NCBI GenBank assembly: GCA_025699025.1 | Contig: JAILWJ010000001.1 | Coordinates: forward strand, 169,148 to 201,147 | Reading direction: 5' to 3' | DNA length: 32,000 bases | Origin: Nitrosarchaeum sp. | GTDB lineage: Archaea; Thermoproteota; Nitrososphaeria; Nitrososphaerales; Nitrosopumilaceae | In this document: positions 1-13,768 of the stretch, in pieces | Numbering within the stretch: the first letter of the stretch is position 1 | Layout: every line of letters starts with the position of its first letter | Position numbers and translations under genes: made by a program | Notes under the pieces: model-generated | What the model was told of the DNA's origin: nothing | Database searches by the model: none | The model's input: the letters and a program-made list of their open reading frames with translations, nothing else

Positions 1-2
1 CT

Positions 3-248
3 AACGAGTGTCCAAACTGCTCATTTGCAGGAAAGGACACAAAGTCAAACAAATTCTCAGACGAGGAAAAAAACCAGTTTCCAAAGGGATATGCAGCTGA
101 GAAGTTTGCAAAGATGCAGACAGTGAAAAAAAGCGGTCAGGAGATAACCGAGTTTGTAAGAGATCAAAATAAACAGATAATTTTTGAGATGAAAAAAAGA
201 TGCCCCATATGCGGACATCGTGAGGATGTAAAGGAGGTTGCTAACTGA
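3..248 (+). CDS. C-terminal 81 codons of a protein truncated by the window edge; Zn-ribbon (CPNC ... CPIC) viral protein of unknown role
   Basis: Hand translation of the frame starting at nt 3 is stop-free to TGA 246-248: NECPNCSFAGKD...KKRCPICGHREDVKEVAN. The stop overlaps the next ATG (TGATG). The ORF is absent from the ORF track because it has no start inside the window. The antisense ORF 57..305 looks spurious. Confidence 0.5.
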   Translation, partial: NECPNCSFAGKDTKSNKFSDEEKNQFPKGYAAEKFAKMQTVKKSGQEITEFVRDQNKQIIFEMKKRCPICGHREDVKEVAN

Positions 249-1183
249 TGGTAACTGCAATAGTGCCTCACTCCCATGTAGACCTGGAAAAGGAAGTACA
301 GACAATCATCGAAGATGATGTACTGACCAACCCAACCAACATTGGCGTAATTCCGACAAATCCAACATTTCTTGCTGTAGGTCCAGACGGCGGCTCAATT
401 GTATCAACCTTTTCTCCTACCAAAAGAGACAGACGAAAGGCCGGAACCAGGACTAGAATCGGAATCAGTGTTACAAAAAAGAAATATACCGCAAGGCTTG
501 TCTTCAAGGCATCAGACAATAATCTGGCACTGCAAAAATGGTGCATAAACGAATCAGCAAAAGGCGGGACTGTAACTCCTGCAGCTACTAGAACTTTCCT
601 AAAATCGTATCTTGTCGGCGCAACTGAGACCTATGAGATATTCCGTGGCTGTGTCCCAGAAAAGACCAACATCGGAGTCTCAAAGGACGGTGAAATCATC
701 TATACTGTCGACCTCAAATGCAAGACAATAGTTGAGAACCAGACAGCAAACGGTGGAATAACTCTTGGAACTGGCGCATTTGCATCACCTGACACTGCAG
801 CACCTTGGAAGGCAAGCGATGGCGGAGCAAATGCATTTGCACACAACTCCATCAACTATGGATTGGAGGGAATGTCAATTGACATTACCAGGGAATACGC
901 AGTACAGGATCCGTCTGAGTCACTTGAAGACATGATGTATGCAGAGACCATCAACACTGTATCAGGCTCTGTGGATATCCAAAAATCAAACATTGCCATA
1001 TCCACAGATGCAAGGGCAACGACTCTCAGAGCAATGACGCTTGTACTCAAAGCCGCAACGCTTACCCTGACATTTGCCAATGCAAACTTTGACGGCCATA
1101 CTGGATTGGACCATGACCCGACAAGCTCGGCATTGCTTACAGACAGCGAGAACTTTACGGCAGACTCGGTGGTGGCAGCATGA
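248..1183 (+). CDS. Major virion structural protein, most consistent with a tail tube protein (a capsid protein is not excluded)
   Basis: 311 aa, rich in T/S/G/A/N, with mostly short beta-like segments and no long spine-type helix. It lies immediately upstream of the chaperone-like gene with the frameshift signature. Its start is coupled to the upstream ORF and its stop overlaps the next ATG (ATGA). Confidence 0.45.
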   Translation: MVTAIVPHSHVDLEKEVQTIIEDDVLTNPTNIGVIPTNPTFLAVGPDGGSIVSTFSPTKRDRRKAGTRTRIGISVTKKKYTARLVFKASDNNLALQKWCINESAKGGTVTPAATRTFLKSYLVGATETYEIFRGCVPEKTNIGVSKDGEIIYTVDLKCKTIVENQTANGGITLGTGAFASPDTAAPWKASDGGANAFAHNSINYGLEGMSIDITREYAVQDPSESLEDMMYAETINTVSGSVDIQKSNIAISTDARATTLRAMTLVLKAATLTLTFANANFDGHTGLDHDPTSSALLTDSENFTADSVVAA

Positions 1184-1602
1184 GTCAGGAAGAAGAAAAG
1201 AAATTCCGTGGCATTGACCAAGCCACTGGGAAGTATTTTATCAATTATGGTGAAATCACCTGGACTATACGAAAAGACGGTCATCTTCCACAATACACTG
1301 ACAAGATTGAGGCCATAGTTGAAAAATTTGAAAAATCAATAAAAGAAAAGGAAGATGGAATAATTACGGTAAAAGAAGCACTGAAAATCAGCAGGGAGTG
1401 CTCCAAAGAGATTCTTGAGATTGGGTTAGTCGACTTCAATTATGATGATGTACTTGCAAAGATAGGATATGCAGAAATTGACAAAATCGCAGTGGATCTC
1501 AAACTTCTTTTTTTAGACGTTGGCGGCCTGGGCGAATACCTGCACTCGCAACAGCAGTTAGAAAAGGCAATACGAAGTGGATTCCATGGTTTGAGGGTCT
1601 AG
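1180..1602 (+). CDS. Tail assembly chaperone-like protein (G-like), 140 aa
   Basis: A small acidic helical protein. It contains the slippery heptamer at codons 111-112, and the -1 frame is open from 1482 to 1745. No sequence motif was recognised; the call is by position. Confidence 0.4.
   Translation: MSQEEEKKFRGIDQATGKYFINYGEITWTIRKDGHLPQYTDKIEAIVEKFEKSIKEKEDGIITVKEALKISRECSKEILEIGLVDFNYDDVLAKIGYAEIDKIAVDLKLLFLDVGGLGEYLHSQQQLEKAIRSGFHGLRV
1509..1515 (+). promoter_or_regulatory. Candidate -1 programmed ribosomal frameshift slippery heptamer T_TTT_TTA
   Basis: The heptamer has X_XXY_YYZ form in the zero frame of ORF 1180 (codons TTT 1510-1512 and TTA 1513-1515, preceded by T 1509). A locally GC-rich stretch (GGCGGCCTGGGCG) starts 6 nt downstream. 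Confidence 0.35.
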
Positions 1603-1745
1603 ACGAGATCTATCAATCATTTGTATTGTTCACACATATCCGAAGCAATCTCTTTGAAATTCACAAACTCATAACTGGCAGAGAAATGACAAAGCAGGAC
1701 CTGCAAGAGTATGCAGTATGTTTTGACCACTGGGGTCCATCATGA
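1515..1745 (+). CDS. -1 frame extension (T-like part of a putative G/GT-type fusion, about 188 aa total); alternatively a small independent ORF from TTG 1626
   Basis: The frame with codon starts divisible by 3 has no stop from 1482 to TGA 1743-1745 (88 codons). It has no ATG until 1686. Its stop overlaps the ATG of the next gene (ATGA). Otherwise there would be an unexplained 139-nt gap in a gap-free module. Confidence 0.35.
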   Translation, partial: RRWRPGRIPALATAVRKGNTKWIPWFEGLDEIYQSFVLFTHIRSNLFEIHKLITGREMTKQDLQEYAVCFDHWGPS

Positions 1746-2302
1746 GTTTCAAGTGGGTCTCAAACAGCAACGTAAAACTGGAAGTCATGTTTGATGAAAT
1801 TGGCAACAAGTATTCTCATCTAGGTCCAAAAATTCTCACTGCCCTTGGAAACAGATTGGTTGATCTAATCCAGGAGAATGCACCATACAGTTCAGGAGCG
1901 TATGCAGAAGGATGGAAGCTTGACCAAGTAAGCCAGACAAAAGCAATAATATCAAATCCTGACGGAAAGAAATTCACAATACTGGAATTCACTGGAAAAA
2001 GACCTACCCATATTGAGGCAAAAAGGGCTAAAGCACTTCATTTTGTAATTGACGGGCAGGATGTGTTTGTGAAGTTTTCAAATCCAGGAGGGTTTGCTGC
2101 AAAACCACACGTGAGACCTGCAATGAAACAACTGATGCGGGAAGCAAGGGATATCATCTATGCTGTATTGGGAGATGAGCTAAAAATGTTCAAGGAAGTG
2201 GCAAAACCATACAAGCTAAAAGCATCAAGGACGGTTCAAAAGAAGACCGGCAGAAAAAGACTGAGAAGAAAGGGAAGTTTCAGAAGTAAGAACGTAACCT
2301 AA
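1742..2302 (+). CDS. HK97 gp10-like neck / tail-completion family protein with a basic C-terminal tail
   Basis: Motif pattern recalled from the HK97 gp10 family: ENAPYSSGAYAEGW (AP-x-x-TG-x-L-type), ILEFTGKRP (VEFGT-type) and AAKPHVRPAMKQ (ARPFLRPA-type). The C-terminus KKTGRKRLRRKGSFRSKN is strongly basic. Confidence 0.45.
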   Translation: MSFKWVSNSNVKLEVMFDEIGNKYSHLGPKILTALGNRLVDLIQENAPYSSGAYAEGWKLDQVSQTKAIISNPDGKKFTILEFTGKRPTHIEAKRAKALHFVIDGQDVFVKFSNPGGFAAKPHVRPAMKQLMREARDIIYAVLGDELKMFKEVAKPYKLKASRTVQKKTGRKRLRRKGSFRSKNVT

Positions 2303-2529
2303 TCTAACTTTTTGGATATCACATCTAATTTTTCAATAATCATAAAATTCATGCCAATGTCAATTATTGCCTGTTCCTGTAAATCCTTTGATGGATATCC
2401 GTTTCGCTCCATTACCTCAGCGCATTTTTTTACAAACTCTTTCCTGATGTTGTGTCTTTCCATAACTGACATGATGCAAACTATCAATTCTTCTCTTTTA
2501 ACTTTTTCATGCCTAGATACGTATGTCAC
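2299..2529 (-). CDS. Small (76 aa) antisense-oriented helical protein of unknown function (moron-like insert)
   Basis: This is the only minus-strand gene in the module. It fills the 220-nt AT-rich gap exactly, overlapping the upstream gene's stop by 4 nt and the tape-measure start by 7 nt. The sequence is charged and helical and looks protein-like, unlike the Cys/Phe/Ser-rich plus-strand alternative 2312..2551. Confidence 0.5.
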   Translation of the reverse strand: MTYVSRHEKVKREELIVCIMSVMERHNIRKEFVKKCAEVMERNGYPSKDLQEQAIIDIGMNFMIIEKLDVISKKLD

Positions 2530-4556
2530 AGAATCTCAAGGCAACTGCTGAGATTGAACTAAGGGGAGATAAGTTCACACGTCCTGCAAAAGAGGCCAAG
2601 GATGCAATATCCAATCTGGGTGTCCAGGGCAGACAGGCAATGCAGAATCTTGAGACGGGTTCCAATCAGGCAGCTACGTCAGTCAAAAAGACAGCTGCAG
2701 AAATCAATGCTGCAAGGACTGCCACTCTGGGAATGGCTGGCTCCGTGGCAGGATTGGCAGCTTCGTTTGTGGGATTGGAAACCTCAATATCAAATATTCC
2801 AACCGCACTTAACGCAATAACAAAAGCCGAAGTCGGATTAAAGAGAGCTCAGGATTTACTTGCAACACAACAGCTTACACTAAAAAGAATAGATGCACAA
2901 TTAGAAGAGGCAAGGAGTACTGGGAAAAAAACAACTGCAGAACTTGCATTGCTTGAAGAAAAAAGGGCAATAATAATGCAGAAACTGTCTACTGCCACAG
3001 AAGATCTTGCAGCAAAACAAGAAGACCTCAATCTGAAAAATGATGCATATATAGACACACTCAAGCTGTTTGCAACATCTGTAGGTACAACTATACTCAC
3101 TGCATTTACATCTGTTACAATCATCCTGACACAGCAGGCAACACAAGCAAATCTCACAACCGGTGCTTACATCAGATTGAAATTGCAAATGCTTTCAGCT
3201 TCACTTGCTCAACGTGGATTCACATTATCTACAATTGCATCCACATTCTCGCTTACAGGACTCAGGGCTGCAATGACAGCTGTATCAACACATCCACTAA
3301 TGACAATTGCATTGGTCACTGCTGCAGCAGCTATGGCAGCATATGAAACCAACGTGCTTGGATTACGAGACGCATTATCATCTCTAGCTGGAACCGAACT
3401 TCCTACAATATCAGGATTGATGACAAATCTCACCGGAACCGTACTTCCAGAAGCACAGGGTGGTGTAGAAGATACCACAAAGGCAATAGATCAGGCGACT
3501 CTGGCAACAGAACAATTCAACGATACCTTATCACCTGGCTCTACAAATGCCCTTGGCGAATTCAGCGGTGCACTGACTGAGGTAAGCAGTCCGGGAGGAC
3601 CATTAAATGAATTTGCACTTGCAATAGGCAACGCAATCACAAAGGGAAGCGAGTTTGCACAAATCTACGCAAAGGATGGAACAACTGCAATCCTGACTGC
3701 AGGAAAGAACGTGAAGATATTCACTGACGAGGTAAATGATGCTTCCGAAGCTATTGACAATTTAAAAAAAAACTTAGATAAAGTAGAGCACAAGATAATC
3801 GTCAATCCTGAGCTTGCCCAGTATATCACGGACCCGTTCAACACAAACCCACAGGTTGCAGCATTTCTGAAATTCCTTGCAGAAAAGAACAGGCGCAAGG
3901 TTCCACAGGTGGCAGGATTGAAAGTCTTTGGCTCTGGTGTTTCAATTCCAAGCACAACGCAGTTTGCAGGCAGAAGCCTGAAACGTGCAGCTGGAAGAAG
4001 TGCAAAGTTTGGAGGCTCCAACGTGACACTGAAAAACAAGCTGAATCGTGAATTTGAAAAAATCAGCAACAGATTTGAGTCAATCTCTGGAATGTCATTA
4101 AACCAGCTTTCTAGTATCACAGGACTGCAATTACGACACGGGCTATTGCATGGAATGGGAGGCAGAAATGCATTACGACAGACCACGTTTACAAACTATG
4201 ACGCATATGTTGAGGCTCAGGCTAGCGCTGCATCCCAGGCAGATGCAGAAAGACAGCGTGTGATGAACAATATAGCAGAGGTGGAACTAAGAATTGCACT
4301 TGCAGATGAATTATTCTCGCTTGATCCTGCACAATATGGAAGCTTTGAGTCACTTCTAAGAACAGATTCACATGTACTACAGCACCAACTTGCAGTCGAA
4401 AATCAAGAGATTACACAGATATCAAATCTGACAAATCTTTCATCATCTCAGATAACACAGATGAGGCAGACAGAGCAGGGAAGATCCGATATTGCAGGAA
4501 TATCACTATACATGCAGAGGACGCAGAAGGAGATGCTAGTCTCTTCTACTGTATGA
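2523..4556 (+). CDS. Tape measure protein-like (677 aa)
   Basis: It is the largest gene of the module. The N-terminal part is heptad-like and Q/A/L/K-rich (LKRAQDLLATQQLTLKRIDAQLEEAR...). There are two long hydrophobic A/T/G-rich segments (LFATSVGTTILTAFTSVTIILTQQ and HPLMTIALVTAAAAMAAYE). The C-terminus is Q/S/A-rich and helical. The gene sits directly upstream of the tail-tip genes. Confidence 0.6.
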   Translation: MSQNLKATAEIELRGDKFTRPAKEAKDAISNLGVQGRQAMQNLETGSNQAATSVKKTAAEINAARTATLGMAGSVAGLAASFVGLETSISNIPTALNAITKAEVGLKRAQDLLATQQLTLKRIDAQLEEARSTGKKTTAELALLEEKRAIIMQKLSTATEDLAAKQEDLNLKNDAYIDTLKLFATSVGTTILTAFTSVTIILTQQATQANLTTGAYIRLKLQMLSASLAQRGFTLSTIASTFSLTGLRAAMTAVSTHPLMTIALVTAAAAMAAYETNVLGLRDALSSLAGTELPTISGLMTNLTGTVLPEAQGGVEDTTKAIDQATLATEQFNDTLSPGSTNALGEFSGALTEVSSPGGPLNEFALAIGNAITKGSEFAQIYAKDGTTAILTAGKNVKIFTDEVNDASEAIDNLKKNLDKVEHKIIVNPELAQYITDPFNTNPQVAAFLKFLAEKNRRKVPQVAGLKVFGSGVSIPSTTQFAGRSLKRAAGRSAKFGGSNVTLKNKLNREFEKISNRFESISGMSLNQLSSITGLQLRHGLLHGMGGRNALRQTTFTNYDAYVEAQASAASQADAERQRVMNNIAEVELRIALADELFSLDPAQYGSFESLLRTDSHVLQHQLAVENQEITQISNLTNLSSSQITQMRQTEQGRSDIAGISLYMQRTQKEMLVSSTV

Positions 4557-4557
4557 C

Positions 4558-6243
4558 ATGGCAACAATCCCGGCAGGGTATGACCCGACAGGGTTATCCC
4601 CCAAGATACAAATCATTGACGAGAATGACACGGTCCAGTACACTTACGAGTCCGACCAGATAGCAGAATCACCGGAACAGGACTTTGACCTGGAATCGTG
4701 GAATCTTTACAGAGGGGTGAACACGGAGCATGGAAACTGTGTGATAGTAATTGACGACCCGGACAAGGACCTGCTGGACCTGACAGACGCAAGACGGGAA
4801 TCAAAAATCAAGGGAACATGGATGCTAAAGATGTTTCTTGGAAAAAACTCGACAAATGTAAACGAGTGGTTCAGAGGATACATACTTGGCAATGACCCAA
4901 ATTTTCCAGATCCAGGAGAGACAAAGCACAGAATCATCGCATATGGCGAATCAATCAAGACTGCATATTACAAGACAATAATGAGGTTCTTCCAGAAAAA
5001 AGAGGCAGACGGTGAGACACTTGATGCCACGGATGCTGATGCAAAACTCTCAGAGATTTTCAAGAGGCTGATTCTAAACACCGACCACCTGGCAGTACCC
5101 GGAATGCCATCGCTTGGATTCACAGTAAACGGGGTCCAGGATATGGATATCAAGATACCTGATTTTCAGAAAAACTTTGACAGTATAGGTCAAGCATGCA
5201 ATGAGCTTGCAGGAATTGGCTCGGCATATTATGGGGTAGAACTTGGCGATGCATACCTGAGAAGACGTGACAGTGTGGATTCTGGATTTCTGGTAACCAA
5301 TATGGATTATGACAACATCATAAAGACCAACTGGAACCAGGACAAGGTGGCCTACCTGCTTAATGCCCCACGTGGATGGTCAAATGATTTTTCTGATTAC
5401 GGAATCGGGTTCTTTAACGGATTAAACACGCAAAAGCCAATCAAGGACCAGGAGCAGACAAGTGCAAATGCAGCACTGAATCTTTCATCAAAGCATATTT
5501 CATTTCCAATAATTCCGGGAAGAGACAATGTCCTAAAGATCGCGCCGTTTCTTGCTAAAGTCGGGACGATATCAAAAGACCTTACAGTAAAGATATGCGG
5601 GGATGATGGAACAGGCAAGCCAAATCCGGAAGACATCAGGGTCAAGAAGATAATCAAGGGAGGCCAGCTTCAAAACGAGCTTGCATCAGCGAAATACTTT
5701 GAGATACTGTTCAACAAGTTTTCGGTGCTTCCTGCAACGACCATACACTGTGTAATTGACAAGTTTGCAGATGCTGTAAACTATATCACGCTTGACTATC
5801 AGACAGGAACTGGAACATATCATGACTCTGATGACGGCATAGCATGGACAGCACGGACAGGTGACATCAAGTTTAGAGAATATGCTGCAAAGACAACACA
5901 CGTACTGTGTGAAAATACTGTTGCCTCAAAAAAGTTTGCCGGAATGAAAAGGCAGATGAATGTACCAATGACCAACTTCAAGAGTAACGAGATGGCACTG
6001 GTCGCACTTGCAGGAATTGCCACATCCAGGGGGAAGCAGAGAAGACGATATCCATCATTTATGGTCTCAGCGCCAACATTGCCGTTACATCTTGGAAAGA
6101 CGTTCAGGTACATTGACATCAGAACTGGGCTACAATTCCAGCCAAATCTCATATCATATGAGTTGGGAGGCTCGGCATATGACAAGCAGAGCAACCTTGG
6201 CGCAACTGAAATTTCTCTGACAATGGAAGAGTGGGGGTACTAA
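4558..6243 (+). CDS. Tail-tip / baseplate protein candidate (in the Dit/Tal position), 561 aa
   Basis: It starts 1 nt after the tape-measure stop. No motif was recognised, so the call is positional only. Confidence 0.35.
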   Translation: MATIPAGYDPTGLSPKIQIIDENDTVQYTYESDQIAESPEQDFDLESWNLYRGVNTEHGNCVIVIDDPDKDLLDLTDARRESKIKGTWMLKMFLGKNSTNVNEWFRGYILGNDPNFPDPGETKHRIIAYGESIKTAYYKTIMRFFQKKEADGETLDATDADAKLSEIFKRLILNTDHLAVPGMPSLGFTVNGVQDMDIKIPDFQKNFDSIGQACNELAGIGSAYYGVELGDAYLRRRDSVDSGFLVTNMDYDNIIKTNWNQDKVAYLLNAPRGWSNDFSDYGIGFFNGLNTQKPIKDQEQTSANAALNLSSKHISFPIIPGRDNVLKIAPFLAKVGTISKDLTVKICGDDGTGKPNPEDIRVKKIIKGGQLQNELASAKYFEILFNKFSVLPATTIHCVIDKFADAVNYITLDYQTGTGTYHDSDDGIAWTARTGDIKFREYAAKTTHVLCENTVASKKFAGMKRQMNVPMTNFKSNEMALVALAGIATSRGKQRRRYPSFMVSAPTLPLHLGKTFRYIDIRTGLQFQPNLISYELGGSAYDKQSNLGATEISLTMEEWGY

Positions 6244-6244
6244 C

Positions 6245-7201
6245 ATGTCATCTACTGATTTTGGTGAGGATCTGTCAAGATCCAACCTGTCACTGGAAAT
6301 GATTGCAAAGCTGATGACTGCAGCACAACAACAGAACCTTCCAGTCGAGGATGACTTGACTCCGGACTATGAGACAGTGTCACCACTTGAAGACATACAT
6401 GATGTATCAATAATTGCAGGTATTGTTGATTTGAACAAGGAGGAAACAGTTGACCATGTTCAGGAATTACCATATCTGATGAGAACGCCTGAAAACCCAT
6501 ATCCTTACGATTTGATTCATACTACAGTTGGAAGTGGATTTGGATTTCCGGACTCTGGAAAAAAACATGCAGGAAGAATCTCAGACAATGCTAATACTCA
6601 CATCAAGGTGGATCATGATGCAGATGCTGCAAGGCTTGACATGGGGGCAGGAACCTTTGCCATTGCCTTTTGGATTATCAAGACATCCTCTGGAACATAT
6701 GGAATTGTAACAAAAAGAGATATTGCAAACACAACAAATGCAGGAATTGAAATATGGGTAGACAACACGACAATATATGTCAGGATTGCAGACGGGACAA
6801 ACTCTGTACTGCTTTCTGGAACACTTGCAGCGTTAAATGACGGCAACTGGCATAGTGTAATCATAAACATTCCAGATACTGGCAACCTTGAGATATTCAT
6901 TGACAACGTCTCAAAGGGGACAGTATCACGTGGCTCTGTTGCAAGCATCAACAATACAAGGGACGTAATTATCTGCGGACGTGACAACAATGGAACCATC
7001 CAGGACAAGCTTGTGGGAGATTTTGCCTGGTTTGTGTGGAAGAAAACCGAAATATTTGATGCCACACAGAGAAATGACTTTCACTCAAACGGACTGCTTG
7101 ACCTGGCAGCAAGCGCCGATGTCGAGGTCATAACCATTCCTGGAATCCTTAATGAAAACCCAATGCCAAATTGTACTCCATCTCTGTTTTCTACTGCATA
7201 A
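6245..7201 (+). CDS. LamG / concanavalin A-like jelly-roll domain protein (putative tail fibre or receptor-binding protein 1)
   Basis: C-terminal Laminin_G_3-type pattern: GTFAIAFWIIKTS...GIEIWVDNTTIYVRIADG...LNDGNWHSVIINIPDTGNLEIFIDNVSKG...LVGDFAWFVWKK. Confidence 0.6.
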   Translation: MSSTDFGEDLSRSNLSLEMIAKLMTAAQQQNLPVEDDLTPDYETVSPLEDIHDVSIIAGIVDLNKEETVDHVQELPYLMRTPENPYPYDLIHTTVGSGFGFPDSGKKHAGRISDNANTHIKVDHDADAARLDMGAGTFAIAFWIIKTSSGTYGIVTKRDIANTTNAGIEIWVDNTTIYVRIADGTNSVLLSGTLAALNDGNWHSVIINIPDTGNLEIFIDNVSKGTVSRGSVASINNTRDVIICGRDNNGTIQDKLVGDFAWFVWKKTEIFDATQRNDFHSNGLLDLAASADVEVITIPGILNENPMPNCTPSLFSTA

Positions 7202-7235
7202 TGATTCTCTTTTGAATTTCAGTATTAATTATTAC

Positions 7236-7520
7236 ATGTTCACTGAGGAACAGAAAAGCATCATTATCGGATATGCAGACAAATGCGTTGCTGAACTGCA
7301 GTCCAGTATTTCAAAAATAACAAACAGAAAAGAGCAATTCATCGCATCAAACGGCAACACCGAAAAGATGATGGAAAAAGACCTCACCAAATTGACAATG
7401 AAGGAGCTCAAAACAAAAGCCATAGTGTTAAACAAATTCCGCTCGGAGCTGACCAATACGGGATCATGGGTACTTTTTGAACTGGAGAAGGTTGACAAGG
7501 AGATAGTGAGAAGACAGTGA
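7236..7520 (+). CDS. Small coiled-coil protein (94 aa), unknown function
   Basis: ATG 7236 is preferred over track start 7152, which would overlap the upstream gene by 50 nt and add a Cys/Leu/His-rich junk-like N-terminus. The sequence is K/E-rich and helical. Confidence 0.5.
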   Translation: MFTEEQKSIIIGYADKCVAELQSSISKITNRKEQFIASNGNTEKMMEKDLTKLTMKELKTKAIVLNKFRSELTNTGSWVLFELEKVDKEIVRRQ

Positions 7521-7675
7521 GTTCAAGGGAAGACCGTGACAAGCTAGAGTTTCAGGCAAGAATTGCAAGAGAGACAAAGATGCCAAAGCCTTTAAAAAAA
7601 TCCAAAATGCGATTACTACAAAAAACAGAAGAGTCAAAGAACCAGGAACACTTTGATTATCTGGAAAACCTGTAA
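7517..7675 (+). CDS. Possible small basic ORF (52 aa, GTG start)
   Basis: GTG 7517 overlaps the upstream stop (GTGA). The frame is open to TAA 7673-7675 and gives VSSREDRDKLEFQARIARETKMPKPLKKSKMRLLQKTEESKNQEHFDYLENL. It would fill an otherwise empty 190-nt gap. It is below the ORF-track size cut-off. Confidence 0.25.
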   Translation: MSSREDRDKLEFQARIARETKMPKPLKKSKMRLLQKTEESKNQEHFDYLENL

Positions 7676-7711
7676 TGCTTCTTTTGTTGAATTTTTCCAA
7701 AACATTCTCAG

Positions 7712-8383
7712 ATGAGACTATCCAAGAAAGACGAGTTAGAGTTTGTTAGATTATTCAAATTAAAACATGGCGTGCCGCCAAACCATGCATCAATCAAGTT
7801 CAGCCAGTGGAATGTTTCCGTGTGGAATGACGATGATATTTGCAGTATTGTTGCAAAACCGTCACATGTAATGTCAGAACTTGATGCGTTATGGGCAGAG
7901 ATTGCAAGTACTGACAGAAACACGGTTGTCAGACCTGTTCTCTCAGAATACAGGACTTCGGCAATGCAAGAACCAATACTGTATCAAAAAAACATTGACA
8001 ATATTCTGACAAATCTTGGGATGAAGAACATGGCTCAGCTAAGTACTGCAGACTCTGTAAAGACAAACACACACTGCTATGTGGGTGATTCGGCGACACC
8101 TGAGGATGTAGGGGATGACCAGCTTGGAAATCAGCTTGCTGCAAAGGCATTTGACTCAGACGGAGATCGAGAAACAGTAGACCAACAGGAAAGATATGCA
8201 ATGGCATTTTTCAGGTCAGACTTTGTTTCCGATGTAATACTAAAGGAGGCCGGCATAGGAACGGGAACTACACCACCGACTGATATTCTTACTGCACATG
8301 TTACCTTTGCAGACAAGCCAATTGGTGCAGGACAGACAATGACCGTGCAGATAACTGTCACTCATAAAAATGGGACGTCATAG
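7712..8383 (+). CDS. Virion-associated hypothetical protein (223 aa)
   Basis: The gene lies between the two LamG genes and its stop is 2 nt before the next ATG. No motif was recognised. Confidence 0.45.
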   Translation: MRLSKKDELEFVRLFKLKHGVPPNHASIKFSQWNVSVWNDDDICSIVAKPSHVMSELDALWAEIASTDRNTVVRPVLSEYRTSAMQEPILYQKNIDNILTNLGMKNMAQLSTADSVKTNTHCYVGDSATPEDVGDDQLGNQLAAKAFDSDGDRETVDQQERYAMAFFRSDFVSDVILKEAGIGTGTTPPTDILTAHVTFADKPIGAGQTMTVQITVTHKNGTS

Positions 8384-8385
8384 AC

Positions 8386-9393
8386 ATGACCGTATCTGAT
8401 GGCACTGACGTATTTGCGCCTGATAAGGCAGTGACTTCTGCAAGATTAAACAAAACTGTTCTTTGGAGAGGTACAAGCTTGCCTGTGGGTGCTGCAAACA
8501 AAATACCAAAGGATGGATTCTTTGTGCTTGTTGATTCGATGACAGATCCGACAACTTTCACTTTTTACATCCAGACATCAGAAATTTTATCCAGTCCTGA
8601 CTTTAAACCAATAATTGCGCCAGACTCGGACTTTCCAGACGGACTTGGCAGTCTTGCCGATAAAGTAGAAGTTGGCTCTATGTCTAGAACGGCTCATACA
8701 GATTTTCCAACTGCGGCCGAGGATTGGGCTTGGGGCGCTTATAGTTCTGGTAATTATACGGAAAAGACAAGTGCACCATCATCTATAGTGGATTTAGACA
8801 AGGGCACATGGGTCATATGGTTCAAACTTACATCCACTTCTACTATTCAAGCAATAGCTTCAATAAGTAAAGCCACAACTACTACATCACAGAAAGATAA
8901 CTATTTCATTCATTATCGTGGTGATCTGTCGAGTCCAAACAAGAGAATTGAAATTGCTTTGGATGTGGCGGGAACCCGTGTAATGAATTGTTACACCAAT
9001 ACTGAAATTAACGATACAAATTGGCATATGATAGCAGTGGTATCAACTGGCTCATTACTGAAAGTATACCTGGATGGAATTTTGCAGACCCTGACCTTTG
9101 ATACTGGCTCTAACTTGGGACAATTTTTTTATTCTGCAACAAATGCAGACAGGTTAAACGATGGCTCCACATATTCAAGTGCAACCCGAGTAAATCCTTT
9201 CACAGGGTATCTTGATGAGCAGATAATTTGGAGTGAAGCGTTATCCGGTGCAGAAATATCAAGCTTGTATAACTCTGGTGCAGGAGAATTACCACAAAAC
9301 ATACACAAAAGTGGCTTGTTGGCTTATTGGAAATACGAAGAGGATCCTGCATCAGGTTCAGGTGTGACAGTAGTTAACAGTGCAATACCGTAA
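8386..9393 (+). CDS. LamG / concanavalin A-like jelly-roll domain protein (putative tail fibre or receptor-binding protein 2)
   Basis: Clear Laminin_G_3-type pattern: GTWVIWFKLTS...NDTNWHMIAVVSTGSLLKVYLDGILQ...FTGYLDEQIIWSEALSGAEISSLYNSG. It is the last gene of the viral block. Confidence 0.6.
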   Translation: MTVSDGTDVFAPDKAVTSARLNKTVLWRGTSLPVGAANKIPKDGFFVLVDSMTDPTTFTFYIQTSEILSSPDFKPIIAPDSDFPDGLGSLADKVEVGSMSRTAHTDFPTAAEDWAWGAYSSGNYTEKTSAPSSIVDLDKGTWVIWFKLTSTSTIQAIASISKATTTTSQKDNYFIHYRGDLSSPNKRIEIALDVAGTRVMNCYTNTEINDTNWHMIAVVSTGSLLKVYLDGILQTLTFDTGSNLGQFFYSATNADRLNDGSTYSSATRVNPFTGYLDEQIIWSEALSGAEISSLYNSGAGELPQNIHKSGLLAYWKYEEDPASGSGVTVVNSAIP

Positions 9394-9519
9394 ATTCAAA
9401 GGCAATGAATTAATCCAAATATTCCTTCACTGTGGAACCAAAATGCCAGATTTGCTTGTGCAAAGGATGATAATCAGCAATAAAACTGTAAGATAGGGTA
9501 ACCAAATTTCAAATCTATG

Positions 9520-9527
9520 TTTAAATA
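9520..9527 (+). promoter_or_regulatory. Candidate archaeal TATA box (TTTAAATA) for mrp
   Basis: The box is centred about 27 nt upstream of ATG 9551. That spacing fits a leaderless or near-leaderless transcript and argues for ATG 9551 rather than GTG 9530. Confidence 0.35.
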
Positions 9528-9550
9528 ATGTGAACGGACTTTTTTACGCA

Positions 9551-10660
9551 ATGGTTGCAATAGACCAAGTCCTTGAGAAACTAAGCACAGTCATTGATCC
9601 GGACTTGAAAAAAGATATTGTCTCAATGGGGATGATCAAAGATCTTGAACTAAACGATGGTAATCTGAAATTTACTTTGGAGCTCACAACTCCGGCATGT
9701 CCTTTCAACGTCGAAATCGAGGATGACGTAAGAAAGGTCGTAGGTGAGATTGAAGGAATCAAAAACTTTGACATGAATGTAACTGCCAAAGTCATGGAAG
9801 GGCGCTCACTTGATGCAGACACCGGCATGGCCACTGTCAAAAATATCATCGGAGTTGCAAGTGGCAAAGGTGGTGTTGGAAAATCTACTGTCTCTTTGAA
9901 TCTAGCTCTTGCACTGTCTCAATCAGGAGCCAAAGTCGGACTACTTGATGCAGATATCTACGGTCCAAGCATTCCGCTAATGCTGGGTATGAAAGACGGA
10001 TACATGGAAGTCGAGGATAACAAGTTACAGCCTGCAGACTCTAATGGACTCAAAGTGGTTTCATTTGGTTTCTTTGCAGAACAATCCCACCAGGCAGCAA
10101 TTTACCGAGGTCCAATAATTTCTGGCATCTTGAAACAATTTCTGGTTGACACAAACTGGTCTGACCTTGATTATCTTATCGTTGATCTTCCTCCCGGAAC
10201 AGGCGACATTCCACTTACTCTTGCTCAAACAATTCCTATAACTGGAATTTTGGTTGTCACCACTCCACAAGATGTTGCAAGTAATGTGGCAGTAAAAGCA
10301 ATCGGGATGTTTGAAAAGCTAAACGTCCCAATAATTGGTGTGGTAGAAAACATGAGTCATTTCATTTGTCCCAAGTGCGATGAGAAACACTATATCTTTG
10401 GCGATGGCGGCGCAAAGAAAATCTCCGAGCAGTTCAACATTCCATTTTTGGGCGAAATTCCACTAAACTCTGGAATAATGTCTGGCTCTGATTTGGGCAA
10501 GCCAATAATGATTACAAACCCTGACTCTCCAAGCGCAAAAGCATTTAGATCAAGTGCAAAAAACATTGCCGCACAATGCAGCATTCTTGCCTCAAAACTG
10601 CAACAGGAGATGGCATCTGAAGGGACAGAGCCCGCTCCTGAAGCAAGCACTACAAGCTAG
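9551..10660 (+). CDS. mrp: Mrp/NBP35/ApbC-family Fe-S cluster carrier ATPase with an N-terminal DUF59 domain
   Basis: N-terminus is DUF59-like (VLEKLSTVIDPDLKKDIVSMGMIKDLEL). It has the deviant Walker A SGKGGVGKST and the conserved CPKC motif. Confidence 0.9.
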   Translation: MVAIDQVLEKLSTVIDPDLKKDIVSMGMIKDLELNDGNLKFTLELTTPACPFNVEIEDDVRKVVGEIEGIKNFDMNVTAKVMEGRSLDADTGMATVKNIIGVASGKGGVGKSTVSLNLALALSQSGAKVGLLDADIYGPSIPLMLGMKDGYMEVEDNKLQPADSNGLKVVSFGFFAEQSHQAAIYRGPIISGILKQFLVDTNWSDLDYLIVDLPPGTGDIPLTLAQTIPITGILVVTTPQDVASNVAVKAIGMFEKLNVPIIGVVENMSHFICPKCDEKHYIFGDGGAKKISEQFNIPFLGEIPLNSGIMSGSDLGKPIMITNPDSPSAKAFRSSAKNIAAQCSILASKLQQEMASEGTEPAPEASTTS

Positions 10661-10671
10661 TTCTGATTTCT

Positions 10672-11166
10672 GTGAAACTGCCTGATTCTCTTAGAGAGCA
10701 ACTAAAGATTCCGCTTGGTGTTCTGTTACCTGAACATAATGTTACAAAACAAAATATCCTAAATCACATCCAAAACAACTCCTTTGTAATCACTGTTGGT
10801 GATAGGACTACTGAAAAGATGCTTGATTTTGGTCTGGTCCCGTTCCTGCAAATTATCGACAGCCAAGAAAAGAGAGTAAAGCGCGAGATTCCAAAGTCAG
10901 ACACCCTGACTGACTTGACTTGTGACAACCCTGCAGCTGAAATCACCGAGCAAAGCATTGATGCCATCAAGCAGGCCTTTCTGTCAAAGCCTCCAGTAAG
11001 GTTAGTTGTAAACGGGGAAGAAGATCTGCTTGTGATTCCAGTCTGTATTCATGCTCCTGAGAACTCAGTCGTGCTGTACGGGCAACCAAATGAGGGGCTA
11101 GTTATAGTCCAAATTACACCTGAAATAAAAAGTAAAACACAAAGACTACTTGATTCAATGGACTAG
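10672..11166 (+). CDS. DUF359 family protein (archaeal GTP-dependent dephospho-CoA kinase family)
   Basis: Family pattern: VITVGDRTTEKMLDFGLVP...IIDSQEKR...VNGEEDLLVIPVCIHAPENSVVLYGQPNEGLVIV. GTG start. Confidence 0.7.
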   Translation: MKLPDSLREQLKIPLGVLLPEHNVTKQNILNHIQNNSFVITVGDRTTEKMLDFGLVPFLQIIDSQEKRVKREIPKSDTLTDLTCDNPAAEITEQSIDAIKQAFLSKPPVRLVVNGEEDLLVIPVCIHAPENSVVLYGQPNEGLVIVQITPEIKSKTQRLLDSMD

Positions 11167-11168
11167 TC

Positions 11169-11226
11169 GGGTATGATGAGACGGTGGCTGTATGATTTGT
11201 GATTACACTACTAAAAACTCTGACCC
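11169..11226 (+). ncRNA. Candidate C/D box sRNA (2'-O-methylation guide), 58 nt
   Basis: Layout: GGGT, C box ATGATGA (11173-79), 12-nt spacer, D'-like ATGA (11192-95), 3 nt, C'-like GTGATTA (11199-205), 14-nt spacer, D box CTGA (11220-23), CCC. The terminal GGG/CCC can pair. It starts 3 nt after the DUF359 stop. Confidence 0.45.
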
Positions 11227-11317
11227 TATTAATTCATATTTTGAAGAATCAAAATGAACCAAACTTCTTACAACAATTGACATTTTAGGATAAACGCCGA
11301 TTCCATCAACATTCTCC

Positions 11318-11695
11318 GTGAAGCTTGATCCTGAACTTAGATTGCAAATTTTAGAAAAGGTCGGAATCTACTCTAATCGGTTCTCTATTGCCGAACCCCA
11401 CATCATGTTGACTACTAAGGAGGTTCTTGATGCACCAAAAGAAATGACCGAAGGTAGACGTACTTCTGCATACAAGTATTACGGGGTGTCATACCTTCAA
11501 CATAATCTGGTGTTCATTAATGTGAGAAAAATTCCAGATGATAAGACCATTGAAAACACAATTGTTCATGAGTTGATCCACATGCGATTCCCATATCTTG
11601 CTCATGGGAAGCGATTCAACAAACTGGTAAGGCAGGGACTGAAAGGAAAAACATTTCCGCCATACAGAAAAAGAAACAAGATCGCCCCTATTTGA
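11318..11695 (+). CDS. Small HExxH protein (SprT-like / metallopeptidase-like), 125 aa
   Basis: Has the motif IVHELIHMRFPYLAHGKRF (HExxH followed by a downstream His). GTG start. No further domain was recognised. Confidence 0.45.
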   Translation: MKLDPELRLQILEKVGIYSNRFSIAEPHIMLTTKEVLDAPKEMTEGRRTSAYKYYGVSYLQHNLVFINVRKIPDDKTIENTIVHELIHMRFPYLAHGKRFNKLVRQGLKGKTFPPYRKRNKIAPI

Positions 11696-11703
11696 TTTAT
11701 ATT
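11696..11703 (+). promoter_or_regulatory. Candidate TATA box (TTTATATT) for hppA
   Basis: The box is centred about 32 nt upstream of ATG 11732, immediately after the preceding stop codon. Confidence 0.35.
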
Positions 11704-11731
11704 TCCCAGAATTAGGCAAGCTCAGTATAAC

Positions 11732-13768
11732 ATGGAAATCCAAGAGATTCTGCCCATTGGGGCAGGCATTGCTTCATTTTTAGTCGCAGCCGTTCTTGTG
11801 GCTTGGATTACAAAACAGCCTGCAGGAACAAAAGAGATGATGGACATCTCAAACGCAGTCAAGGTCGGGGCTTCAGCATTTCTCAAAAGAGAGATGAAAA
11901 TCATAATTCCAGTTGCAATATCTCTGGCAGTAATTATCGGCGTTTTTCTCCAGCCCTCAAACGGCATAGCATTTGCAGTTGGGGCTACATTGTCTGCAGT
12001 CGCAGGATTGATTTCATTAAAGATTACAGTAAAAGCAGCAGTTAGGGCTGCACATCTAAGTAACAGTGGTCTTGGAAAGACCTTTGCCATGGCCTTTAGG
12101 GGCGGAGCAACTGTCGGGCTGGCAGTTCCAGCTATGGCACTCTTGGCAATTACTGGATTGTATCTGATTTATCCAGACCCAATCACCATTGCAGGTGTTG
12201 GCATTGGAGCCAGCCTTATTGCATTATTCATCAGAATTGGAGGTGGCATCTTTACAAAGGCTGCAGACATGGGCGCAGACTTGGTTGGAAAAGTCGAGGC
12301 AAACATTCCTGAGGATGATCCTAGAAACCCTGCCACCATTGCAGACAATGTCGGCGACAATGTAGGCGATGCTGCAGGAATGGGATCTGACGTTTACGAA
12401 TCTTACATTGTGACTATACTTGCAGCACTGTTGATTGCTGCACTTATCGGTGCTCCTGACTTGTTCCTCTATCCAATCTTGATTGGCGCATCTGGAATGA
12501 TTGCATCTATTATTGGCGTTGTAATTGTTGGCTCTAAGAACGTCACCGATGTGATGAAGCCGCTTAACCGCTCATTTTATGTCTCGGCTGCAATTGCAAT
12601 TGGATTAAACTATGTATTTACCATGCAATTTCTTGAATCGTCTGCTGCATATGCGCTGTTTGGTGCAACCGTGATTGGTGTAATCCTAGTTCCTGTGATT
12701 CAAAAGATCACCGACCGATACACCAATTACAAGTATGGCCCAGTAAATGAAATTGCAGACTCTGCAAAGTGGGGGTATGCGTCATTGACACTAATGGGAA
12801 TCATCAAAGGCCTCCAGTCAACAGGACCATTCATGATTGCTCTGGTTGTTGCAATAATCATCTCTTATAGCATTTCATCTGCGGCAGCGCCTGAAGGTGC
12901 AGACCCAGTACTGTATGGAATCTTTGGCACCGCTCTTACTGCAATGGCCATGTTGAGTCTTGCAGGAATTGTTCTAAGTATTGATGCGTTTGGCCCAATT
13001 GCAGACAATGCCGGAGGCATTGTAGAGATGACTGGCATGGGCGAAGAAAACCGTAAAATCACTGATGAAATCGATGCAGTTGGAAATACCACCAAAGCAG
13101 TAACCAAGGGATTTGCAATTGCAAGTGCGGCGTTGGCTGCGCTGGCAATGATTCAGGCATTTCAGTTTGAGGCAGCACATGTGTTTGAAGGAATCTTGAC
13201 ATTAGACTATAGTTTGACCAATCCTGCAGTTGTAGTTGGATTGCTCATTGGAGGCTTGATTCCATTTATCATTACAGGACAACTGATCAACGGCGTGTCA
13301 AGGGCTGCAGGCAAGATGGTTGATGAGGTCCGACGACAATTCAAAGCTGATCCTGAAATTCTTACCGGTAAATCAAAGCCTGATTATGCAAAGTGCGTCG
13401 ATATTGCAACTGTTGCGTCAATCAAAGAGCTCTGGAAGCCTGCACTTATTGCAATCATCTCTCCTATCATTCTGGGTGTTCTCTTGGGTCCTACCGCTGT
13501 AGCCGGACTACTTATGGGCTCTGTTGTCACAGGAATACTGTTGGCGTACCACTTGGCAAACACTGGTGGCGCATGGGATAATGCAAAGAAGTTAGTTGAG
13601 ATGAAAGGACAAAAAGGCTCCGAAGAACACAAAGTAGCTGTAGTTGGCGACATTATTGGTGATCCTTACAAAGACACCGCAGGACCCGCATTAAACACCG
13701 TAATCAAGTTGCTAAACACAATTGCAATAGTGTTTGTATCTGCATTTATCGCAATCATTGCAATCTAG
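11732..13768 (+). CDS. hppA: Membrane-bound H+-translocating pyrophosphatase, K+-independent type
   Basis: Family motifs: GGGIFTKAADMGADLVGKVE, IADNVGDNVGD, DAFGPIADNAGG, GNTTKAVTKGFAI and GDPYKDTAGPALN. It has many TM helices. The Lys in GNTTKA marks the K+-independent subfamily. Confidence 0.97.
   Translation: MEIQEILPIGAGIASFLVAAVLVAWITKQPAGTKEMMDISNAVKVGASAFLKREMKIIIPVAISLAVIIGVFLQPSNGIAFAVGATLSAVAGLISLKITVKAAVRAAHLSNSGLGKTFAMAFRGGATVGLAVPAMALLAITGLYLIYPDPITIAGVGIGASLIALFIRIGGGIFTKAADMGADLVGKVEANIPEDDPRNPATIADNVGDNVGDAAGMGSDVYESYIVTILAALLIAALIGAPDLFLYPILIGASGMIASIIGVVIVGSKNVTDVMKPLNRSFYVSAAIAIGLNYVFTMQFLESSAAYALFGATVIGVILVPVIQKITDRYTNYKYGPVNEIADSAKWGYASLTLMGIIKGLQSTGPFMIALVVAIIISYSISSAAAPEGADPVLYGIFGTALTAMAMLSLAGIVLSIDAFGPIADNAGGIVEMTGMGEENRKITDEIDAVGNTTKAVTKGFAIASAALAALAMIQAFQFEAAHVFEGILTLDYSLTNPAVVVGLLIGGLIPFIITGQLINGVSRAAGKMVDEVRRQFKADPEILTGKSKPDYAKCVDIATVASIKELWKPALIAIISPIILGVLLGPTAVAGLLMGSVVTGILLAYHLANTGGAWDNAKKLVEMKGQKGSEEHKVAVVGDIIGDPYKDTAGPALNTVIKLLNTIAIVFVSAFIAIIAI

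Follow-up and report, generated by a model that had tools for sequence, protein, structure and literature searches.

A siphovirus-like tail module beside mrp in Nitrosarchaeum, the probable right-hand end of a temperate provirus

Introduction

What is a run of tail-like genes doing next to the housekeeping gene mrp of an archaeon? The question is raised by a 32-kb stretch of DNA (hereafter the window, taken at its full length) from a 776,525-bp contig of a Nitrosarchaeum sp. metagenome-assembled genome (MAG). An initial annotation, made from the sequence alone, had read its first 9.4 kb (positions 1-9393) as the tail module of a head-tail virus integrated in a Nitrosopumilales-like archaeon, and the source of the window agrees with that host. 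We conclude, with a probability of roughly 70%, that positions 1-9393 are the right-hand end, the tail module, of a temperate Caudoviricetes provirus that has a long non-contractile tail, appears intact and is inserted between rpo7 and mrp. The evidence comes from the families and predicted folds of the tail proteins, from the same site in related genomes, where the block is absent, and from a portal gene upstream on the same contig. The loci fetched for comparison, either relatives of the element or loci carrying mrp, are given L-numbers (L001-L096).

The tail module

The features of the block are the following, each with the grounds on which it is named where these are brief.

248-1183, plus strand: major tail (tube) protein, 311 aa, double-domain type by predicted fold (Pfam, fold and tblastn; identical to MCV0398551.1, K5785_00995)
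1180-1602, plus strand: putative tail assembly chaperone, G-like zero-frame product, 140 aa (position between the tube and tape-measure genes)
1509-1515, plus strand: slippery heptamer T_TTT_TTA (fits X_XXY_YYZ in the zero frame, CT-T_TTT_TTA-GAC)
1515-1745, plus strand: predicted -1 frame extension of 76 codons; the resulting GT-like fusion chaperone would have 188 aa (comparative evidence)
1742-2302, plus strand: HK97-gp10-like tail-completion or neck protein, 186 aa (Pfam and PHROG)
2299-2529, minus strand: small antisense open reading frame (ORF) of at most 76 aa, occupying a slot of variable content that separates the gp10-like gene from the tape measure
2523-4556, plus strand: tape measure protein, 677 aa (PHROG, and position between the chaperone and gp10-like genes and the hub)
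4558-6243, plus strand: baseplate hub or tail-tip protein with a predicted gp27/Mu gp44/Tal fold, 561 aa (MCV0398556.1, K5785_01020)
6245-7201, plus strand: tail protein with a LamG/ConA-like fold, candidate receptor binder, 318 aa (Pfam and PHROG)
7236-7520, plus strand: small conserved protein, 94 aa from an internal ATG (genes of 94-95 aa at this place in L005 and L001)
7712-8383, plus strand: tail fibre protein, 223 aa (phrog_4176 'tail fiber protein', E 1.1e-7)
8386-9393, plus strand: distal fibre or receptor-binding protein, 335 aa, whose C-terminal domain is LamG; final gene of the element

All the plus-strand ORFs that the initial annotation listed are found where it placed them. They coincide with the genes above except at 7152-7520, where the 122-aa frame is probably the 94-aa gene starting at 7236, as the genes of 94-95 aa in the relatives indicate. 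The genes are tightly packed, with ATGA start/stop overlaps at 1180-1183 and 1742-1745 and gaps of 1-2 nt at 4556/4558, 6243/6245 and 8383/8386. The description of the block as co-oriented does not hold for the ORF at 2299-2529, which lies on the minus strand. The proteins had also been thought largely unrecognisable; in fact six of the nine tested match Pfam or PHROG families, and the hub is identified by its fold.

Does the block contain a tail tube? The 311-aa protein, formerly just a 'structural protein', matches PF18906 Phage_tube_2 with an E-value of 2.9e-5 and 24.2 bits (cut-off 27). Its AlphaFold model, based on an alignment of 17 sequences, has a predicted local distance difference test score (pLDDT) of 70.7 and a predicted template modelling score (pTM) of 0.71. 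In a Foldseek search of the PDB the model matches, over its full length, T5 p140 (7qg9_G, E 7.5e-12), the P74-26 tube (8ed0, E 1.9e-10) and T5 pb6, and it also matches the major tail protein 8xan (TM-score 0.63). The matches in BFVD include an uncultured archaeal virus (TM 0.70), HVTV-1 (TM 0.69) and many entries named 'major tail protein'. Because the fold match to the T5 and P74-26 tubes is full-length, while single-domain tubes (lambda gpV, Mu) span only about half of the model, the protein is, judged by its predicted structure, a double-domain tube protein. Aligning its N-terminal half with its C-terminal half by hhalign gives a probability of 0.1 for an internal repeat at the sequence level, so that the double-domain call is one of fold.

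The gene that follows had been taken for a chaperone-like gene with a -1 extension, and both the heptamer and the coding extension prove to be conserved in the relatives. The 140-aa zero-frame product matches no Pfam or PHROG family and has homologues of 31-37% identity at the equivalent position in seven fetched loci (five lineages). Although these proteins are merely 31-37% identical, T_TTT_TTA is kept at the equivalent codon (110-132) in L001, L002, L003, L005, L092 and L096. The -1 frame of the window runs to a stop at 1743-1745, on the ATG of the next gene, and an extension of 74-78 codons, ending at the start of the next gene and conserved at the amino-acid level, is found in the window and in L001, L003, L005, L092 and L096. 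It is shortened to 32 codons in L002, a decayed relative. The comparative evidence for a programmed -1 frameshift of the lambda G/GT type is strong; for this gene frameshifting is a prediction.

The gp10-like and tape-measure assignments stand as well. The 186-aa protein scores over the Pfam gathering threshold for PF04883 (25.6 bits, cut-off 21.4) and matches phrog_5 'tail completion or Neck1' (E 4.4e-8), and residues 16-491 of the 677-aa protein match phrog_167 'tail length tape measure protein' (E 3.6e-5). Among the relatives the tape measure is steady in size (669-706 aa) at a sequence identity of only 21-31%. Between the two genes, the antisense ORF at 2299-2529 has no Pfam match, and minus-strand ORFs of 50-62 aa with unrelated sequences occupy the equivalent slot of L001 (12096-12251), L002 (12072-12260), L003 (14747-14935), L005 (12025-12177) and L096 (12331-12516); L092 has no such ORF. 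To judge from these sequences, this position within the tail operon seems to be a hypervariable slot of the 'moron' kind.

What stands at the tip of the tail? The 561-aa protein, proposed earlier as a tail-tip candidate, has no Pfam or PHROG match, and its profile matches no PDB sequence; PHROG scans of 43 members of its family, which counts at least 150 cluster representatives in the protein library, give one weak 'baseplate hub' match. Its AlphaFold model (43 sequences, pLDDT 92.4, pTM 0.86) matches in the PDB, at a Foldseek probability of 1.00, the hubs of contractile injection systems (E 8e-13), MuSo2 (3cdd), Mu gp44 (1wru), VgrG and T4 gp27. Also matched are the siphovirus tail tips 80alpha Tal (6v8i), T5 pb3, Bxb1 and Douge and that of the archaeal virus HFTV1 (9h4p_BD). 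On its modelled fold the protein is a baseplate hub. No sheath-like gene is found in the window or, in the relatives, in the 10 kb upstream.

The remaining genes include the lectin-fold fibre candidates of the initial annotation, which are borne out by LamG domains and tail-fibre PHROG matches. The 318-aa protein matches PF13385 Laminin_G_3 (E 8e-8) and PF02210 (E 1.2e-6), both over the cut-off, and phrog_24534 'tail fiber protein' (E 3.7e-7), and it is 83% identical to its L005 homologue; the 94-aa protein is 48% identical to the L005 gene and has no family match. The 223-aa fibre protein has homologues of 47-83% identity in L001, L003, L005 and L096, that of L096 weakly matching PF12571 Phage_tail_fib. 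The last protein, of 335 aa, matches PF13385 (E 8.8e-14) and phrog_8510 'virion structural protein' (E 5.5e-10), and its match to the 410-aa counterpart in L005 (18123-19355) is confined to the N-terminal 70 or so residues. The nucleotide similarity to L005 ends near 8537, and the C-terminus of the distal fibre is a LamG domain in the window as against an F5/8 type C (discoidin) domain in L005. This pattern points to a receptor-binding domain that is swapped as a module between relatives.

The insertion site

Is the block inserted, or is it a regular neighbour of mrp? The features of this part of the window are two.

9394-9515, no strand: provirus-host junction zone (alignment with empty sites)
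9551-10660, plus strand: mrp, NUBPL-type Fe-S P-loop NTPase, host flank outside the element (PF10609, E 1.3e-101; PF01883)

A metagenome scan with Mrp provides 80 mrp loci at 88-95% identity, and the block proteins are encoded in none of the 80. In every one of the 58 loci with at least 700 bp of upstream sequence, the upstream neighbour of mrp is the divergent gene rpo7 (RNA polymerase subunit E'), at a distance of 144-150 nt in 50 of them; sequences identical to those of cultured Nitrosopumilus species are among these loci. The integration that had been proposed is thus supported by the comparison of the mrp flank, which has rpo7 in place of the block at 58 of 58 loci. The 32-kb window contains no rpo7, and the Rpo7 of this genome is not among the entries in cluster look-ups of 10 Rpo7 variants.

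The homology to the empty sites starts at about 9513-9516, at the TATA box of mrp (TTTAAATA), and the CAAAG at 9461-9465 is conserved with its spacing to the TATA box kept. For these two reasons the junction is probably located within 9394-9460, between two divergent promoters. A host homology reaching 9472 (L022, L027) was rejected, being weak similarity only.

The spacer between rpo7 and mrp is enlarged elsewhere in Nitrosopumilaceae, to 243 nt in L016 and L031, 403 in L046, 851 in L017 and L018, 3392 in L022 and 3165 in L027. The last two contain an insert of about 3.2 kb with a largest ORF of 307 aa and no virus genes. Parts of these inserts are similar to the sequence found left of the L096 remnant described below. 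The rpo7-mrp site may be a recurrent insertion hotspot.

The head module and the relatives

The next question is whether a head module accompanies the tail genes. The leftward search that the initial annotation had suggested does find a head gene: a portal homologue (K5785_00925, MCV0398537.1, 489 aa) is encoded on the same contig, outside the window, with 69% identity to the L005 portal (E 6e-220), which itself weakly matches phrog_9232 'portal protein'. Counted in annotated genes, it precedes the tube gene K5785_00995 by 14, as against 13 for the corresponding interval in L005. Since the portal gene stands at this distance on the same contig, the head module, as far as gene content tells, is seated just left of the window, and the block is no tail-only cluster.

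At 90% clustering the tube family has 17 members and the portal family 28. Several relatives are on contigs of 32-45 kb, one of which, of 39,443 bp, was recovered from six samples. The tail gene order of L001, L003, L005, L088 and L092-L094 is that of the window as far as each locus extends, and upstream these relatives encode a terminase C-terminal domain (large subunit, TerL; phrog_38, E 6e-4), a portal and a Mu-F-like head protein. Their head proteins of 387-410 aa, which are major capsid candidates, have no family match, and a 2408-aa concatenate of the L005 head proteins and integrase, used as a single protein query, had no match. Directly after its fibre genes L005 has a 414-aa tyrosine-recombinase-like gene (PF00589 Phage_integrase, E 6.9e-6, just under the cut-off). 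All ORFs of the window equal their homologues in size. A scan of 185,579 species-representative genomes gives one other match, Nitrosopumilus sp. OFTM383.

Two relatives are seen inside host DNA. L096 (ENA ERZ26167216, 83.9-kb contig, 1-20936) occupies another site in host DNA, with V-ATPase subunit I on one side and, on the other, the genes for an ABC ATPase and TFIIB, which its fibre genes adjoin. Its tail module and frameshift signal are complete, but nothing of the head module remains, the homologue of a 179-aa gene being truncated by an insertion sequence; either the deletion is very recent or the tail cluster has been retained. L002 (ENA ERZ25071281, 150-kb contig, 7284-13139) retains nothing beyond the gp10-like gene and the antisense ORF, where DDE transposase genes cut it off.

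Some further observations concern the relatives themselves. The contig L092 (JGI Ga0207952_1000106, 87,029 bp), of which, as of L093 and L094, 21 kb is visible, is about twice as long as the near-identical L093 (42,585 bp) and L094 (44,687 bp), which share its portal. A circular or concatemeric viral genome that was assembled as a tandem dimer may account for the length of L092. At 4508-6133 of L088, and likewise in L089-L091, the terminase region is present as two ORFs of 275 aa and 233 aa, of which only the second matches the TerL profile (its C-terminal nuclease part), and an HNH endonuclease gene (phrog_826, E 2e-39) lies upstream of them. An HNH endonuclease beside the terminase is common in cos-type phages. 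The head-to-tail connector region carries a gene for a Peptidase_M10 (matrixin-type metalloprotease) in L005 (7993-8748), L002 (8061-8804) and L088 (13431-14186), an unusual cargo for this region.

A proposed scheme for assembly and integration

How might these parts work together? The assembly steps proposed here for the proteins of the window draw on what is known of siphovirus tails. The tape measure would be held by the G and GT chaperones, in a fixed ratio set by slippage at T_TTT_TTA, and a hub trimer would nucleate assembly at its C-terminus. The 311-aa tube protein would then polymerise around the tape measure, probably as pseudo-hexameric rings of trimers like those of T5 and P74-26, and at about 1.5 Å per residue the tail set by a tape measure of 677 aa would be roughly 100 nm long. 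The gp10-like protein would complete the head-proximal end of the tail. At the other end, the LamG and fibre proteins would bind glycans on the cell surface, and swaps of the distal domain could retarget the host range.

For the integration step, a tyrosine recombinase would act at an attachment site (attP) between the last fibre gene and the integrase gene (int), as in L005. Integration at such an attP would put the tail genes beside attR, with int at the opposite, left-hand end of the provirus. This position of the tail genes is to be expected because int follows the fibre genes in L005, and the window and L096 have the same arrangement. The lambda-type layout put forward in the initial annotation, with the tail next to attR, therefore has support of a comparative kind, from L005, where int follows the fibres, and from L096, where the fibres adjoin host DNA.

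Comparison with known systems

We turn to the systems with which the element can be compared. The closest in gene order is Nvie-Pro1, a provirus of Nitrososphaera (FR725450; Krupovic et al. 2011), which shares with the window the succession of tail protein, two small genes, gp10-like protein, tape measure, baseplate and fibre. Its gp10-like gene (nvie-Pro1-20) likewise lies between the genes at the chaperone position and the tape measure, and because the order is the same in both, this odd placement is a trait common to the two tail modules. In tblastn searches, the 'putative major tail protein' Nvie-Pro1-17 is 21% identical to the tube of the window (local search, E 2e-8) and the 'putative viral baseplate protein' Nvie-Pro1-23 is 20% identical to the hub (E 6e-10). 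Similarity this weak points to distant kinship rather than to a shared virus family. The hosts are both ammonia-oxidising Nitrososphaeria but of different orders, Nitrosopumilales and Nitrososphaerales. The head proteins of the lineage studied here show no BLAST similarity to Nvie-Pro1; the relatives have a Mu-F-like gene and separate head genes, whereas Nvie-Pro1 is annotated with a fusion of protease and major capsid protein. Nvie-Pro1 has no described att sites or integrase, whereas the relative L005 has an integrase. In the INPHARED phage collection Nvie-Pro1 is the sole match, by way of the hub, with no match to the tape measure or the portal; in IMG/VR the tube is not found and the hub matches one distant contig.

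Among better-known phages, the tubes of T5 (pb6, p140), P74-26 and the archaeal HVTV-1 share their full-length fold with the tube protein of about 300 aa in the window at a sequence identity of only 10-13%. By analogy with T5 and P74-26, a duplicated-domain tube implies trimeric, pseudo-hexameric rings, a stoichiometry that we infer. The best PDB match, T5 p140, forms a ring at the tail tip and is not the main tube, which leaves a little room for a connector role of the window protein.

The tail assembly chaperones gpG and gpGT of lambda reportedly arise by a frameshift, which Xu, Hendrix and Duda are said to have described in 2004. As predicted for the window, the gene that follows the tube gene yields two overlapping products through a -1 slip at an X_XXY_YYZ site close to its 3' end, and the extension runs to the next gene. 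The chaperone of the window has no sequence similarity to lambda gpG or gpT, and the arrangement differs in that T abuts H in lambda, whereas the gp10-like gene and the antisense ORF lie between chaperone and tape measure here. The predicted hub fold is shared with T4 gp27, Mu gp44, 80alpha Tal, T5 pb3 and HFTV1 gp44, with no sequence-level match to any PDB chain. As in siphoviruses, the hub gene directly follows the tape measure; the window differs in having no separate gene for a distal tail protein (Dit) before the hub.

The head-tailed viruses of marine Nitrosopumilales known from metagenomes (Lopez-Perez 2019; Ahlgren 2019) have host order and virus class in common with the element; the element of the window is integrated and, judged from the L005 integrase, would be temperate. 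New head-tailed families of Nitrosopumilales have been proposed in a 2025 preprint (bioRxiv 10.1101/2025.08.23.671958). A survey of thaumarchaeal mobile elements from 2019 reported only five terminase hits and described elements from other lineages (PMC6563490), and in 2026 a survey of 1078 Nitrosopumilaceae genomes counted just five proviruses (PMC13573593). The element is of a kind already known, rare in Nitrosopumilaceae, and not a new type of system.

Alternative explanations

How well does an apparently intact temperate provirus withstand the alternatives? Several findings weigh against it. The left part of the provirus lies outside the window, and the evidence for an integrase, a terminase and a candidate major capsid protein is from relatives only. 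At the right junction no att core is recognisable, short-word BLAST of 9385-9535 against the viral loci giving chance-level matches. No ORF has a Dit-like match in Pfam or PHROG, the hub gene starting 2 nt past the stop of the tape measure and leaving no Dit gene between. The Pfam score of the tube is under the gathering score, and the confidence of its model is moderate. The ratio of non-synonymous to synonymous substitution rates (dN/dS) between window and relatives, 0.07-0.22 with dS saturated, speaks for intactness but reflects the history of the whole lineage, not the present state of this copy. Decay does occur in the lineage, L002 and L096 being remnants cut by DDE-transposase insertion sequences.

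The main alternative is a cryptic or defective provirus, a real integration that has lost excision or virion formation (e.g., through damaged int, replication or head genes to the left) and whose tail genes are not yet degraded. The L096 remnant makes the case concrete, as its tail module is intact and an intact tail therefore does not prove a complete provirus; the window holds no integrase gene and no recognisable att site, and earlier thaumarchaeal head-tail proviruses, in Nitrososphaera, Nitrosocaldus and Caldiarchaeum, were likewise described without recognisable att sites or replication genes (PMC6563490). We consider this explanation unlikely, though it has a real chance, in view of a full-length portal gene of 489 aa at the expected distance on the same contig, of 9.4 kb free of insertion sequences, stop codons and unplanned frameshifts, and of ORF sizes that match those of relatives on virus-genome-like contigs of 35-45 kb. 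The same PMC6563490 study raised a reading of such elements as resembling gene transfer agents (GTA), and a domesticated element, a GTA-like particle or a flexible-tail tailocin kept by the host, would also suit the flat GC content of the window (block 0.429, host part 0.424) and the head-less yet intact tail cluster of L096. It would not suit the portal gene, which argues against a tailocin, nor the absence of the block from 58 of 58 informative mrp loci, since the block is not fixed at one locus. The single other match among the species-representative genomes, the relatives at other host sites or on virus-sized contigs (L005 with an integrase), and the exchange of the distal fibre domain, as expected of a virus that tracks its host, make domestication improbable. 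The initial annotation had allowed for a decayed remnant or a domesticated particle; the ORF sizes and the upstream portal gene speak against both.

Could the joint be an artefact of assembly or binning, with a free viral genome mis-joined to the host contig and no integration at all? A MAG may contain a mis-join, and the junction at 9394-9515 is an AT-rich intergenic region with no recognisable att core. Two independent mis-joins would however be needed inside a 776-kb contig, and the break seen here coincides with the place where rpo7 should adjoin mrp and spares the mrp promoter; L096 and L002 are, moreover, embedded in host DNA in other assemblies. We regard an artefact as very improbable indeed. 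Our preferred reading is, with the points above kept in mind, the tail module of an apparently intact temperate provirus.

A wider proposal goes beyond the single locus. The provirus and some 20-30 metagenomic relatives could belong to a lineage of family rank, as yet undescribed, of temperate siphovirus-like viruses that infect Nitrosopumilaceae. Their tail module would have a common origin with that of Nvie-Pro1, in a tail lineage specific to ammonia-oxidising archaea that predates the split of the two orders, and the viruses would integrate outside tRNA genes, in this case in the divergent promoter region of rpo7 and mrp. This is tentative, and we would put it at somewhat less than an even chance; the comparison of the lineage with the families of the 2025 preprint is by host order and virus class only.

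The left edge and the host flank

3-248, plus strand: small Zn-ribbon protein (CPNC...CPIC), 3' end, 81 codons and stop, immediately ahead of the tube gene, truncated at the window edge

The element is already under way at the start of the window, where this C-terminal piece of a gene is encoded; in L001, L002, L003, L005, L088 and L096 the gene that immediately precedes the tube gene is a homologue, 32-50% identical. Within the block, 190 nt (7521-7711) separate the 94-aa gene from the fibre gene; a short ORF rich in lysine (MPKPLKKSKMRLLQK...) lies in this gap, and L005 has a gap of similar size at the equivalent position. No tRNA gene or Rfam family is found in the window. A promoter and terminator scan of the window gives signal at the level of shuffled sequence and uses models of bacterial type, and so carries no information.

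From about 9530 on, the genes are those of housekeeping, as had been noted: Mrp/NUBPL (PF10609), DUF359 (named 'DPCK' at first) and the H+-PPase gene hppA (PF03030, E 1e-231) all have Pfam matches. Between DUF359 and hppA, an ORF of 125 aa (11318-11695) has a HELIH motif and no Pfam match. It is detected in 67 of the 80 related loci, with identity up to 91% in the best-matching ones, and by this conservation is a host gene.

Significance

Ammonia-oxidising archaea drive nitrification in oceans, estuaries and soils, and few of their viruses are linked to a host. The locus ties a lineage of tailed viruses directly to Nitrosarchaeum, a lineage with hardly any other representatives in the phage and IMG/VR collections searched, and connects it to Nvie-Pro1. 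Its tail parts can be assigned with confidence, namely the tube, the frameshifted chaperone, the hub and the swappable lectin-type receptor binders, and the tube, hub and portal offer markers for such viruses in nitrifying communities. If the proposed lineage is real and the provirus inducible, it would provide a host-anchored temperate tailed virus system for mesophilic ammonia oxidisers.

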